Notes: generated by a model from the letters alone, not told the origin. DNA of 57,772 nucleotides, filler included, from Catajapyx aquilonaris (GCA_000934665.2; 2 parts of 2 records of this genome joined end to end with filler, not necessarily neighbours in it), one strand, 5' to 3'; positions 29,997-56,363 are shown, counted from the first letter of the whole stretch. Numbers and translations: made by a program.

Positions 29997-31806
29997 ATGG
30001 GAGGCAAGAGCAATGGCTTCGACAAGGGTCTGGAGCCTGAGAGGATCCTGGGCGCCACAAACCCAGGCGGGGAACTCCTGTTTCTCATGAAGTGGTTAGT
30101 GTGACACTATAATTATGCAGTTATTTCGTCTGCCCATGATTGTCATGCACATTTTTATTAGCCTACATATGCTAATGTATTCTTTACTTTTTATGCTATG
30201 CTTAAAATTCACAAGATTATTCTTTACACAATAATCGTTGGCATATACAGTAGGTCTATAGCCATATACATGCAACTGTGTGTTCCGAGTCATTGCACTT
30301 TGTGAATGACATGAATGGGCGTGTTCATAACAAAGTTACAGAATAAAAATTAATGAAACAACACGTAGGTGATTCAATTGACTGTAGCATTTCTTGATCA
30401 TGACACATTAATGTTTGTCATAAACAGGTCATATAAACTAGTCACTTCAAGCAATAAATTTATGAACGTAGCCTACTGAATATTTTAATTTTGTGTAATA
30501 GACAGATTTGAATAATCTGGAACCAAGTGGAAAACCTTAGTTACACATAGACTACTGTGAATGCCGGTGATGTGCATGTAAATTATGTTCATGTCACTAT
30601 ATATGCCCATGTATTTTTGGTGGAACGTGTGAAATAAATATATTAAATGTGTGTACCGATCAGCCCTTTGACACTCCTCGAATACGGTAGTGTAATAACT
30701 GTGCCCCATGGTTCGCTAAGACGCCATCTTGTTCAAGGTGCAACTCCTGTGGTAGGTAGCGGGTAGCCGGGTAGTCTGCCGCGATTAGTTCGATCTTTCT
30801 TTCATTCCGCAGACTTACCACTAGGGTGCACCTTGAAAAAGATGGCGGATAGCGGGGCGACACGGTGGCCGAGTGGTTAGCGCCGCAGCATTCCACCTCT
30901 AAGGTCCCGAGTTCGATCCCCGGGTCGGATGGAGGATACTTGTGTGGATAGAGTTTCGATGGGTTCTCTCCGTGTTCGTGTGGGTTTTCTCGGGGTTCTC
31001 CCGTTTCCTCCCACTATCAAAATCCATCACATTTCAGGCAAATGATTAAAGTCGGGTTTTCAAAAGATGATCCCCTAAGAGGCCCAAGGGGCCTATCACG
31101 GGGTATCCATTATTATAGATGGCGGATAGCGAACGATGTAGCGCCGCCAGCGCCAAAATCAGGGCCAGGCGGAGACACAGGAATTAAACTACAGTGTATA
31201 TATGTTAGACTCAAACCCCGAAAACGGCCATTGAGCGAAAAAACCGTCCATTCTGCAGAATGATCTGTGCCAAACCCGGCACAGATCATTCTGCAGGGGG
31301 GAAGTAACATGGGGCTGGTATACCGATATTGGCGAATGTGATAAAAATGTGCGTAACAATAGCCACAATGAACCATTTCCGCAATTTTTCAGGCCAATTC
31401 CACTACCCTGCAATGATTTTGCAGCATGGGATTGGATGTGTGACCTGACCTAATCCGAGCGTGCTGATTTCATATCTGCTTTCAATTTATGCATATTACT
31501 TCATAAGATTTTCATGCAATGATAATAATGCTTATAATTAAAGTTATCAAATAATACATAAACAATATTAACCTACTCAATTACCCATCCAAATTATCAG
31601 TACCAAGAGTGCATCATTTTATATAATTCTGTGGAGCACCCATGAACCACTGCCATCATTTTGTAAAGTAAATTTTTCTTCTTAACAGGAAAGGCAGCGA
31701 CTTGGCCGAGATGGTCCCTGCCAAGGTAGCGAACACTCGCTGCCCACAAATCGTAATCCGGTTCTACGAGGAGAGGATTATCTGGCACCGCCCCAGTCAT
31801 GATTAG
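29997..31806 (+). CDS. HP1-family chromo shadow domain protein, apparently CSD-only (71 aa); coding exons 29997-30094 and 31689-31806
   Basis: Spliced product [71 protein letters not shown] matches the CSD pattern GFxRGLEPEKIxGAT...FLMKWK...AN.KCPQ.VI.FYEERL.W. Phase-2 intron GTTAGT...TTAACAG; ATG in CAAAATGG context; exon acceptor at 29981-29982. Confidence 0.92.
30855..31116 (+). mobile_element. tRNA-derived SINE (family A) in the CSD-gene intron
   Basis: A-box GGTGGCCGAGTGG, B-box GAGTTCGATCC, ATT tail, TSD AGATGGCGGATAGCG at 30840-30854 and 31117-31131. Homologous to the copy at about 54716-55020. Confidence 0.9.
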
Positions 31807-31940
31807 GAGAATGGAGGCTGAGAGAACTAGATCCAGGAGACATTGTTTCAACTTGCACAGCATGTAGGGGATGGGGGACTATGTAATGTGAAGAATGAAA
31901 CTGGAAGCCCGAAATAATTGTTGGTTATTTAAACTCCTTT

Positions 31941-32257
31941 TTTATAGAGTTGTACCCCGTTATCTGGCCGATAGGCCATTTCTAGGGGAGTGGATTACCA
32001 CCATTTGGGGTTTGGAGCGATATACATATATGTATTTAATTGCTCCAAGGGTAATTGCCAAGTGCAAGTGCAATGTCGTTGCTTGGTCATTTTGTGAACT
32101 CCCCCGGGTGGGTTAGTCTATCGGAAATTCCCACCCGAAACGAAGCCAGAGATGGCCCAACTCTGCACGAAAGAAGGTGGGAACCCCGGGCGGGGATTGA
32201 ACCCGGGACCTTAACTTCCGTGAGCGCACGCGTTACCTCGGCGACACTCCGTCTCCC
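31941..32257 (-). mobile_element. tRNA-derived SINE (family B)
   Basis: Minus-strand head with B-box GGTTCAATCC; TSD TTAAACTCCTTT at 31929-31940 and 32258-32269. A related copy lies at 36034-36391. Confidence 0.85.
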
Positions 32258-52920: not shown

Positions 52921-52941
52921 TACATAGTTTAAAACAACTGG

Positions 52942-55900
52942 CTAAACACCAGTCTTCCAGAGCTTTATGGCCCTGTCTTTCTCCAGAGCTGCTGAAGCGA
53001 TTATGTTCTCAGTCGGATGGCAAGCTGTGCATAGCACCACATCTGAAAATATTTTTAATTCGTCTTCAGACAATGCTACAATTACAAGTTCACAAATGGA
53101 CCTACTATACTTACCGGTGTGCCCCACCAATTTCTGTACAATCTGCCTCGTATCAAGGTCCCAAATGTAAACCATGTTGTCCTCTGATCCCGACACAATC
53201 AACTGAAAGAATGTCTCGTGTTAAGAAACGTAACAGTCGGGAGTCTGCCTTGATATCGCTAACCTCTCTTCCCGTAACGAAGTTGGCATGGATGCAATAC
53301 TTCTCATTCTTGTGTCCGGTGTAAATTTTGAGACACTCATTCTTGCATAAATCCCATAGCTTGATCGTGTTGTCCAGTGTGGCCGCCAGGATGTACTCTC
53401 CATTGGGAGAGAACTTGGCAAACGACACTATGGAACTTTTATCGACAACCAAGGTTTTCACACAACGCTTAAACTCAGTAGACCATATGCGACTGCAAGA
53501 AGAAGATAATGATATGCTCAGACACATCTAATACTTTCGATAATCGCTACCTAGTACAGTATTATTCTCGGAAAGAGTAGGCACCTTACTGGAGTGCGGG
53601 AGACGGCAGGGTGAGTGGTGGCTGGGGGCATCTTGGCTGTGTTGCAAAGGCAAGGATGCAAGGATTGATTTTTTGAATTTTGGAAGGGGTATGCTGTACC
53701 AACCTAACCTAACCAAGCCTAACCTTCCTTCCTTGCAGATACAGACCTATCTTCAGCTATATAATAATAATAATAATAATAATAATAATAATAATAATAA
53801 TAATAATAATAATAATAATAATAATAGGGCAATTCCACGCGTTACGTACAGACAATCGGAAGCTGTATTGAGGTGTTTAGGAGTCCACCGCGGCTAGGTA
53901 CTTGCCGTAATAGATTAACTGTTATGAAAATCAGATGCAGCGCAGAAATGTGAAGGTGAGGGACATCATGGAAATTTCATTCGATGGCCATCCACGCGTG
54001 TGCGATTGTCTGACATCTCGTTACGTACCATCCGTCATTGGACACCAGTTTCTGGGGTATATGCAACTAGGGGGAAACTCTGCGAAATTTGACCGCACAG
54101 GTTTCGAAGCTCAAGTGCATGTGGGGCAGAAGGGTGCGAGGAACCTCATCATGCCATTAGATTGGGAGAATTCTCATTTTGAACGTGAAAACATTTGAGA
54201 TATCCACCCGTTACGTACCACCCGGCATCGTTACGTACCACCTACAGCGATTTACTGGGAGTAGCATAAATTTTTGGAGATTGGAATGTCTGTGAATTCA
54301 TAATCTTATAATGGCTCCGCTGCACTGAAATAGGAACTAGGTCAGTTTTTGACCTTTGGATACCTTTTGGTGTGGCTGTGGAAGGTCACACATACATGAA
54401 TACAGCAAAGTGATTGCACAGGTCGATGTTGCATTTTGTGCCCTTGAATTATATGAAAACGTCTGTCTCTCTTCCTTTCACATATCGGTATAGCGAATAA
54501 CCAGCTGGCAATGCACGTTAGCCGAACGGATATCACAGAGCGCACGCTTAGATACTCTGGGAATAATACTGTGTTGTTGGGAATGATACTGTCACAAACT
54601 AACATGTCTAAGGAAACCATGGTCCACATGCTATCGGTTTTAGTCACTCAGATTCCAACTGCGTCAAGATGTAAGAACGGCACCCCATGTCCGCTTTTTC
54701 GTGGAATTGCCCAATAATAATAATAATAATAATAATAATAATAATAATAATAATAATAATAATAATAATGGACACCCCGTGACAGGCCTCCTTGGGCCTC
54801 TTAGGGGATCATCATTTACATACCGACTTTAATCATTGCCTGCGCTGTGATGGATTTTGATAGTGGGAGGAAACGGGAGAACCCCGAGAAAACCCACGCG
54901 AACACGGAGAGAACCCATCGAAACTCTATCGACATAAGTATCCTCCGTCTGACCCGGGGATCGAACTCGGGACCTTAGAGGTGGAAGGCTGTGGCGCTAA
55001 CCACTCCGCCACCGTGTCGCCCTATCTTCAGCTATACAGACCTATCTTCAGCGGATACACACCTATCCTTTATCCTTGCCTTTGCGACACAGCCCCCTGC
55101 CCCCACCGACTACTACCCTCCCGCCTCCCGCATGCCAGTAAGGCCAACTCAATCCAATAATTCAATATAATTATAACATGCTCTTCTACAAATATATAAT
55201 TTTAGATTATTTTTATATTTCAAAGAAGAGGCTACATACCAACGTCCGTCGTAACCACTGGTGAGTATGAGGGTACCATCATAATTGAATTCAACCGCAC
55301 TTACAGGTTCGGAATGAGCAGGCAAGACTTTTAAACATTTTCCTTTGCGTACGTCCCACAATCTCACAGTTTCGTCAAACTGCAATTAATGCAATCAAGA
55401 TCGGGTAATCATTATTGTCAAAAAACACTCACCGATCCTGATGCAATTATGTTCGACTGCGGGTTGAAGTTGCAGCAGAATACGTAACTGCTGTGGCCCT
55501 CCAGTGTCTTCAGGCACCTCCCCTGATATAAATACAAAACATAAGATATAAAATAATCCTCAGCCAATATGCTATGCATAGCAAGAGGAATGGAAGTGCC
55601 AAGAATAATAAAAATTAGTAATTGAAAGCACTGCATTAGCAAAACTCTGCAAAATGAAGCAACAGAAAGTGCCAAAAGCGATAAAAATTGATATTTGACA
55701 GGGCCGTCTTAGCGAAATTCTGCAAAAAAAATTGACAGAAATTGCCAAAAATAATGTAAATTAATAATAATTGAAAGGACCGTATTAGCAAACCTCTGTA
55801 AAACGAAGGGACACACTGTAAAGCAAGATACATATGCCTGTAATTCTCAGAATCATGATTTTTGCTGTATTTTTAGTGTTCCTTCAAAGTAAATGTTTCT

Positions 55901-56363
55901 TACAGAGATCGATTCCCATATCTTGAGGGTCTTGTCATCGGAGGCAGTGACAAGCAGGCGGCTGTCGCTAGACCAGGCCACGTCCGATATTCCCAACCTA
56001 TGACCTGTCATGGACCTCTCGAACTTTCCATTGGAAGCGTCCCACAACTTCAGGATCTTATCTGCACCTATAATTAAGAGCATGGAATCATCTTGAATTG
56101 TCAGACACACATTTTTAACTCACATGAGCTGGCCAGCCACTGTCCGTTGGGACTAAACTTGATGGAAGACACTCCCTTAGTGTGTCCTTCCATTGTGTAC
56201 TTCAAGCGGTAGTCAGACTGCTCGCTCTGGATAGTACAAAAATATTAATTACAATACTAATTACAGTATGGAATGCTTATGATCACCGGCTTGTGTCCCA
56301 ATGTCTCACCCTGCATGTCGTCAACGTGTCTCTGGAGTGACTGGAGCCTTTCGTGTGTTCCAT
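52942..56363 (-). CDS. WDR5: WDR5/will die slowly-like WD40 protein, divergent (322 aa); exons 56363-56310, 56226-56124, 56067-55904, 55522-55433, 55379-55240, 53492-53264, 53202-53115, 53042-52942
   Basis: Seven WD repeats with WDR5-specific strings: [44 protein letters not shown] and [15 protein letters not shown]. All seven introns are GT-AG, phases are consistent, and there is no internal stop. The first exon is the least certain. Confidence 0.95.
53578..55147. mobile_element. Three-level nest in WDR5-like intron 5: palindromic MITE > SINE family A (minus) > Harbinger-like element in the SINE tail
   Basis: SINE TSD CCTATCTTCAGCTATA at 53746-53761 and 55021-55036. An element with TIR GGGCAATTCCACG / CGTGGAATTGCCC (about 53827-54712) splits the (TAA)n tail. 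Confidence 0.85.

Follow-up and report, generated by a model that had tools for sequence, protein, structure and literature searches.

Positions 29997 to 56363 of a 57,772-nucleotide stretch of DNA from Catajapyx aquilonaris (GCA_000934665.2; two parts joined end to end with filler, the whole being referred to here as the window) contain four intron-bearing genes: an HP1-like gene reduced to a chromoshadow domain (CSD), an Arf-like gene, an ERH gene and a WDR5 gene. The explanation that we favor, and to which we give an even chance of being correct, is that all four are lineage-specific extra copies that arose by duplication at the DNA level and came under relaxed or shifted constraint, the Arf-like copy being freshly inactivated. 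The gene structures, the family membership, the degree of divergence and the specific substitutions on which this explanation draws were observed directly in the window.

Structure of the four genes

The window was eukaryotic and arthropod-like, with a GC content of 0.34 to 0.53 and six runs of N, and contained exon-sized open reading frame (ORF) fragments together with transposon and SINE-like repeats. Gene models for the HP1-like, Arf-like, ERH and WDR5 genes were built by hand and verified by script across positions 29997 to 56363, the bounds of which are start codons: the CSD gene begins with its ATG at 29997 and the WDR5 gene, on the minus strand, with its ATG at 56363. All 14 introns were of the GT-AG type and the frames were continuous, apart from one in-frame TAG in the Arf-like gene, which bore out the statement of the initial annotation that every one of the four genes keeps its introns. 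The CSD gene lay on the plus strand and the Arf-like, ERH and WDR5 genes all lay on the minus strand. The arrangement was that of two gene pairs, CSD/Arf-like and ERH/WDR5, with 12.8 kb of repeat-rich DNA between them. Pfam was run on the 16 exon pieces of the four models with a threshold of E ≤ 0.01, and the expected family was detected in 14 of these; the silent pieces were the 32-amino-acid exon A of the CSD gene and the 27 amino acids past the Arf stop.

A divergent WDR5 gene with an intact frame

The WDR5 gene occupied positions 52942 to 56363 on the minus strand and encoded 322 amino acids in an intact frame of eight exons (56363 to 56310, 56226 to 56124, 56067 to 55904, 55522 to 55433, 55379 to 55240, 53492 to 53264, 53202 to 53115 and 53042 to 52942). 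Beta-prop_WDR5 (PF25175) was the best Pfam family for all seven propeller exon pieces, with a rough sum of about 428 bits versus a cutoff of 250. Identities were taken from high-scoring segment pairs (HSPs), and many of the longer matches were to fused or mispredicted gene models. A single HSP of 299 amino acids with vertebrate WDR5 had 73% identity, and clean single-HSP matches were obtained for 12 of the 120 sequences fetched, at identities of 58 to 73%. A comparison with 18 named proteins gave values of 65 to 73% for the WDR5s of moth, beetle, ostracod, mite, tick, crab and oyster. The canonical WDR5s of moths, beetles, an ostracod, a mite, a crab and a tick were themselves 84 to 92% identical to the human protein over the aligned parts, and that of oyster was 83% identical. 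A word-index search yielded 195 candidates sharing words with the window protein, of which 171 were scored. The top matches were canonical proteins of vertebrates, moths, oyster, nematodes and tick at about 69 to 72% identity, and the 195 candidates included no self-match and no ortholog or closer relative. By these comparisons, the window protein is clearly a long-branch outlier that is roughly equidistant from all canonical WDR5s.

Individual positions were examined with numbering that follows the human segment and with a comparison set of the human sequence and seven canonical sequences. The initial annotation had pointed to an F263H change, and a CAT codon for His was found at this position (53290 to 53288), where Phe was present in the human and all seven comparison sequences; F133 was kept. 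Residues were compared at the WIN site, an arginine pocket lined by F133 and F263, and at the WBM site, which serves RbBP5, KANSL2 and MYC. Those at 13 of 16 WIN positions and at 8 of 10 WBM positions were the same as in human WDR5, the WBM differences being K272E and Q289D, with position 289 also varying in some comparison sequences. The window protein differed at 33 of the 144 columns that are invariant in canonical WDR5s, and changes were present in 32 of 143 invariant columns versus 51 of 159 variable columns (Fisher P = 0.07). Under simulated neutral drift, an intact frame was obtained with a probability of 0.006 at 27% protein divergence and of 0.043 at 15%. We read the gene as one kept open by selection yet apparently freed from much of the canonical constraint. 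The protein keeps the propeller and nearly all partner-contact residues and probably still scaffolds partners, and its ligand preference may be altered because one wall of the WIN pocket is changed and two WBM residues differ.

Long trinucleotide microsatellites of the AAT/ATT type were detected at 49830 to 49900, 53750 to 53840 and 54700 to 54770, two of them inside the large intron 5 of WDR5. These microsatellites produced spurious poly-Ile, poly-Asn and poly-Leu ORFs.

An Arf-like gene with an in-frame stop codon

The Arf-like gene had four exons and 175 codons on the minus strand. Exon 1 (37261 to 37342; Pfam Arf, 2.9e-4) encoded the Met-Gly start and the P-loop GLDGAGKT, and exon 2 (35026 to 35129; 2.1e-3) encoded switch I and the interswitch with TIGFN. 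Exon 3 (34771 to 34963; 3.9e-16) encoded DVGGH, a switch II with a two-residue deletion, and NKND, while exon 4 (33388 to 33536; weak Arl3/Arf1 matches) contained the in-frame TAG at 33474 to 33472 and, past this stop, SALTGDG. The TAG was the single lesion and replaced a conserved Trp. Matches to Pfam Arf (PF00025) were obtained with three of the four exon pieces and summed to about 98 bits versus a cutoff of 22.3, and the Arf hallmarks Met-Gly, GLDGAGKT, TIGFN, NKND and SAL were all present in the model.

Arf switch II normally reads DxGGQ, with a catalytic Gln. The window gene had a His codon (34951 to 34949) at the position of the catalytic Gln, and alignment with Arf1, Arf6 and a fungal Arf placed a two-residue gap after it. 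The initial annotation had recorded the DVGGH and the TAG; both were recovered, and the shortening of switch II was found in addition. An exhaustive HMMER search of 1.84 billion cluster representatives returned 1760 matches (E ≤ 1e-3), none of which exceeded 56% identity over a single domain. Among the 150 matches listed, the 14 nearest single-domain picks had full-length identities of ≤43.6% and none had the switch II deletion; the only carriers of GGH among the listed relatives were Sar1-like. No match at E ≤ 1e-6 was found among the 30 candidates of a word-index search with exon 3, and exon 2 had no match in PDB at 1e-4. The nearest relatives of exon 3 were a fungal Arf and Arf6, and the 27 amino acids past the stop gave weak matches to Arl3 (nearest) and Arf1. 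By sequence comparison, the gene is a member of the Arf family that could be assigned to no one subfamily, and its low full-length identity indicates that it is by its nature not a standard copy. An origin from Arf6 was considered and was unsupported by this mixture of a fungal Arf/Arf6 affinity in exon 3, an exon 2 with no PDB match and a weakly Arl3-like C terminus.

The stop looks recent, judging from the reading frame. With no second lesion in a sequence that has diverged by about 60%, the frame was maintained during most of this divergence. The TAG was not among the variant rows listed for DNA contigs. A likely order of events would be loss of the catalytic Gln, shortening of switch II and then acquisition of the stop, and the gene is most likely recently dead or dying.

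A chromoshadow-only HP1-like gene

The HP1-like gene was an intact, two-exon gene of 71 amino acids on the plus strand, the intron of which fell inside the CSD. Exon A (29997 to 30094) extended from an ATG in a CAAAATG context to a GT donor and encoded 32 residues plus two bases of a Trp codon; exon B (31689 to 31806) matched Pfam Chromo_shadow (PF01393; 6.2e-14) and ended with a TAG at 31804 to 31806. Sixteen solved CSDs matched the gene at E ≤ 1e-5. The best of these was CBX1, and 22 of 33 residues were identical to the human CBX1 CSD. The Ile and Trp that we take to be those of the dimer interface and of the PxVxL pocket, respectively, were both present in the alignment. A homolog search with the CSD produced one match from two candidates, at 60% identity, and was uninformative. 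The alignments show a CSD conserved to the same degree as those of canonical proteins; the gene is atypical in architecture only.

The N-terminal chromodomain of HP1 proteins reads H3K9 methylation. Upstream of the CSD gene, no chromodomain was detected with any model at E ≤ 1 in 106 plus-strand ORF pieces at 22933 to 29996, nor was one found by a motif search of the whole window, and the absence of a chromodomain reported by the initial annotation therefore holds for the assembled sequence. A good polypyrimidine/AG splice acceptor was present 14 nucleotides upstream of the ATG and two 44-N assembly gaps were present about 1 kb upstream (28869 to 28968), from which it follows that an upstream chromodomain exon is possibly missing; we put the probability that the assembly lacks upstream exons at roughly one in four. 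The CAAAATG start context was common to the CSD, WDR5 and Arf-like genes and is of the type that forms the arthropod start consensus. Since the presumed dimer-interface Ile and PxVxL-pocket Trp are kept, a CSD-only protein would be expected to pair with other CSDs and to engage the partners of these domains while being unable to read H3K9 methylation. Its role would be that of a modulator or competitor, as for the CSD-only HP1s of flies.

A moderately diverged ERH gene

The ERH gene (50262 to 51551, minus strand) was intact and encoded 104 amino acids in four exons (51551 to 51549, which held the ATG only, 51453 to 51369, 51311 to 51191 and 50367 to 50262). All three of the longer coding pieces matched Pfam ER (PF01133), with 34.1, 54.2 and 29.2 bits versus a cutoff of 25. 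The numbers of residues identical to human ERH per coding exon were 19 of 28, 27 of 39 and 21 of 32, or about 68% overall. The initial annotation had placed the differences in the loops; a one-residue deletion was indeed present in the first loop, but the other changes were distributed over the protein.

Intron 1 was in phase 0 after the Met codon (ATG/GT, 51549) and intron 2 was in phase 1 in a Gly codon (GAA G/GT, 51369). A review of ERH describes canonical introns in phase 0 right after the Met codon and in phase 1 in the Gly-31 codon (PMC10605862), and both introns of the window gene were exactly at these ancestral positions. The same source lists how similar other ERHs are to the human protein, with identities of 84% (a tunicate), 62% (a sponge), 53% (C. 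elegans ERH-1) and 37% (C. elegans ERH-2). Of the species aligned in Figure 1 of that review, C. elegans and P. patens alone are shown with two paralogs. Exon 3 of the window gene scored 52.6 bits to human ERH versus 22.6 to ERH-2, and exon 2 scored 29.7 versus 21.1. These comparisons indicated a moderately diverged ERH that could be either an ortholog or a DNA-level copy and that, as a copy, would be an ordinary-looking homodimeric adaptor.

A transposon remnant was located at 50422 to 51103, in intron 3 of ERH, by a DUF4817 helix-turn-helix match (E = 2.5e-4, just under the cutoff). Similar peptide fragments were present on both strands of the remnant, suggesting an internally inverted or nested insertion.

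Sequence variants and read depth

Variants were taken from the DNA contigs of one sample (X1 to X3) over positions 31651 to 51650. Of the 17 positions classified among the rows listed, 8 were coding. The Arf-like gene had four nonsynonymous variants and one synonymous variant, the CSD gene had two variants, both nonsynonymous, and ERH had a single coding variant, which was synonymous. The four nonsynonymous letters in Arf-like exon 2 (P38T, G46E, D50E and N56H) fell within 104 nucleotides (35026 to 35129), an unusually dense cluster, and G46E changes a Gly to Glu within TIGFN. The variants among the rows listed are no more than suggestive of a lack of constraint on the Arf-like gene, and the variant letters may represent alleles or near-identical second copies elsewhere. 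Run X5 (of unsettled kind; share, 0.09) covered only repeat-type segments of positions 31651 to 51650, with no Arf-like or ERH exon, and was uninformative on expression; repeats probably account for its share of the ERH/WDR5 stretch as well. A search for RNA runs covering positions 50180 to 56400 found none.

Spacer, repeats and neighboring sequence

The spacer between the gene pairs (37343 to 50261) was repeat rich, and many of its bins were very deep in the DNA runs. No credible Pfam domain was detected in 102 ORF pieces of ≥50 amino acids from positions 37400 to 50200, and the three sub-cutoff matches all lay on low-complexity runs; the initial annotation was thus upheld in recognizing only four genes. 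Among 18 long ORFs across the window, only a transposon helix-turn-helix fragment and an immunoglobulin I-set exon were recognized, and no Rfam family was found in the entire window.

Recurrent SINE-like elements were observed at about 32055 to 32260, 34060 to 34250, 36040 to 36420, 38245 to 38500 and 49504 to 49700. These elements contained the same peptide-like strings in several frames, and the DNA runs covered them at thousands of times the depth of single-copy sequence. A foldback was present at 39909 to 41252, with arms of about 480 nucleotides (39909 to 40391 and 40778 to 41252) that were 97 to 99% complementary and were separated by a 386-nucleotide spacer. Its depth in the DNA runs was very high and contig joints skipped positions from about 39730 to 42182. 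The element resembles a high-copy, transposon-like insertion, about 2.45 kb long, that some copies or alleles lack. Upstream of the four genes, exons of an immunoglobulin-superfamily gene were located on the plus strand at 16400 to 16993 and 22410 to 22895, with a weak I-set match; the last ORF encoded a hydrophobic tail resembling a glycosylphosphatidylinositol anchor signal and ended about 7 kb before the CSD gene. A minisatellite-like tandem array at 10277 to 10981 contained a 234-codon open frame of repeated units and is probably noncoding.

Origin of the four genes

The initial annotation had described the four genes as atypical, diverged paralogs. This description was borne out insofar as the genes are real, intron bearing and diverged and as the Arf-like and HP1-like genes are not standard copies by nature. 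The term atypical applied to the Arf-like gene, to WDR5 and to the architecture of the HP1-like gene; the CSD sequence itself was ordinary and ERH was only moderately diverged. Under the explanation that we favor, duplication at the DNA level in a repeat-rich stretch would give the extra copies, and the ancestral introns would be kept because the duplication was of this type. Since the Arf-like gene and the chromodomain-less HP1 are not standard copies, ERH and WDR5 are likelier to be extra copies too. We infer the existence of canonical copies elsewhere, the mechanism of duplication and all of the functions discussed here.

Several points weigh against duplication as the origin of all four genes. 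ERH and WDR5 are putative extra copies, and the identity of about 68% between ERH and its human counterpart falls between the values for the single-copy ERHs of other metazoans, a sponge and a tunicate (PMC10605862). Independent duplication of four unrelated families into one 26-kb stretch is improbable and therefore leaves block duplication or ancestral loci; the favored explanation requires the former, which is hypothetical. The CSD-only architecture could be an assembly artifact, given the nearby acceptor and the gaps 1 kb upstream. The near-equal frequency of changes on invariant columns of WDR5 fits a loss of old constraint and not clearly a new function, and the comparison set used for these columns includes imperfect gene models. 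Finally, the variant letters may stem from near-identical copies and not from alleles.

The most serious alternative, which we consider about half as probable as duplication, is that the window holds sole copies, at a minimum of ERH, WDR5 and a full-length HP1 with unassembled or missed chromodomain exons, in a generally fast-evolving lineage; the adjacency of the genes would then be due to chance and the Arf-like gene would be an unrelated, lineage-specific Arl. The identity of ERH fits this alternative, as do its ancestral introns and the rarity of second ERH paralogs among the species of Figure 1 of the ERH review (PMC10605862). The conservation of the CSD, which equals that of canonical CSDs, the acceptor 14 nucleotides before the ATG and the N gaps at 28869 to 28968 are also consistent with it. 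The WDR5 gene argues against sole copies: arthropod and chelicerate canonical WDR5s have 84 to 92% identity to human WDR5, in contrast to the 73% of the window protein, which is changed at 33 of 144 otherwise-invariant columns, F263 included. Furthermore, the 106 upstream ORF pieces contained no chromodomain, and the ATG of the CSD gene lies in the same CAAAATG context as those of the WDR5 and Arf-like genes.

It is unlikely that the stretch is a graveyard of decaying duplicates in which all four genes are nonfunctional or becoming so. Such decay would account for the premature TAG, altered switch II and mostly nonsynonymous variants of the Arf-like gene, for the nonsynonymous nature of both CSD variants among the rows listed, for WDR5 substitutions that are nearly as frequent on invariant as on variable columns, and for the repeat-rich setting with transposon insertions in introns. 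Against it, the 322-codon frame of WDR5 extends over 8 exons with 7 GT-AG introns between them, and simulated drift gave a probability of no stop of 0.006 to 0.043; ERH and the CSD gene are intact, and the one ERH coding variant listed is synonymous. Even the Arf-like gene has a single lesion despite its divergence of about 60%, most of which arose while the frame was maintained.

The initial annotation had proposed that the genes form a coregulated, germline- or sex-specific silencing module of paralogs or belong to a sex- or B-chromosome compartment, which we likewise regard as improbable. Three of the four families (HP1, ERH and WDR5) act on chromatin or nuclear RNA, the ERH and WDR5 frames are intact, and precedents exist in the testis-biased CSD-only HP1s of flies (PMC3380853) and in nematode ERH-2 of the PETISCO complex (PMC10605862; PMC8415317). 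When k-mers upstream of the genes and common to at least three of the four were counted and compared with shuffled sequence, two were found at k = 8 (shuffled mean, 1.0) and none at k = 9 or 10, so that none was shared beyond chance. The gene pairs are 12.8 kb apart, and three of the genes lie on one strand and the CSD gene on the other. The Arf-like gene, besides carrying a stop, does not encode a chromatin protein, and the ERH of the window resembles standard ERH far more than it does ERH-2. A module of four genes acting together is possible but unsupported. The least probable proposal, which we mention as a long shot, is that the CSD-only HP1, ERH and WDR5 block has been kept as a lineage-specific, probably germline-restricted chromatin/small-RNA complex, an arthropod counterpart by analogy of the recruitment of ERH-2 and an eIF4E paralog to nematode PETISCO, in which the altered arginine pocket of WDR5 would accommodate a new ligand, with the CSD-only protein as a bridge to HP1. 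In a nonexhaustive literature search, we found no arthropod for which linkage of HP1, ERH and WDR5 paralogs had been described.

The case is at present a plausible but ordinary one of duplicates that evolve fast and of which one is already broken. HP1, ERH and WDR5 are among the most conserved chromatin adaptors, and diverged intact copies of them show how hubs of this kind can become respecialized. A WDR5 pocket that is naturally F263H, and a nonfly protein made up of a chromoshadow domain by itself, would be useful for comparative work. Coexpression of CSD, ERH and WDR5 in the germline, together with canonical copies elsewhere, would indicate a new lineage-specific silencing or chromatin complex; if the genes are sole copies, interest moves to the tolerance of this lineage for a changed WDR5 arginine pocket.

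Comparison with known systems

Paralogs of WDR5 include vertebrate WDR5B, a retrocopy, and nematode wdr-5.2 and wdr-5.3. The window gene resembles these paralogs in encoding a seven-bladed WDR5-type propeller that has diverged from a near-invariant canonical protein. It differs from WDR5B in keeping seven introns, because of which it is not a retrocopy, and it has at F263 a His that is absent from the human and seven canonical sequences. Judging by title, none of the papers listed as mentioning WDR5B dealt with arthropod paralogs. Within the Arf/Arl/Sar GTPases (PF00025), GGH occurs naturally in Sar1. The Arf-like gene shares with this family its Met-Gly, GLDGAGKT, TIGFN, NKND and SAL motifs and its Arf-type exon matches and differs from it in the His for the catalytic Gln, in a switch II deletion present in none of the 14 nearest picks and in the stop at a conserved Trp.

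C. elegans ERH-2 is a diverged ERH paralog that acts with an eIF4E paralog in the piRNA-processing PETISCO complex (PMC10605862; PMC8415317). The ERH of the window would resemble it, as a second, diverged ERH serving as a dimeric adaptor, if a canonical ERH is present elsewhere in the genome. The two differ in degree, since ERH-2 has 37% identity to human ERH (PMC10605862) whereas the window protein has about 68% and scores far better to human ERH.

The closest parallel to the HP1-like gene is provided by the CSD-only "partial HP1" genes of Drosophila, which are described as mostly testis biased and lineage restricted and include Umbrea/HP6, HP1Lcsd, HP1Mcsd and HP1Ncsd (Levine et al. 2012, PMC3380853). 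HP6/Umbrea, a protein reduced to the dimerizing domain, is the subject of modeling in a preprint (bioRxiv 10.64898/2026.08.24.746899, 2026). The window gene differs from these genes in its nonfly origin, in the intron within its CSD and in a CSD as conserved as canonical ones, and its lack of a chromodomain refers to the assembled sequence. It resembles them in encoding a small HP1-family protein that consists only of the dimerizing, partner-binding CSD and that appears to be lineage restricted.

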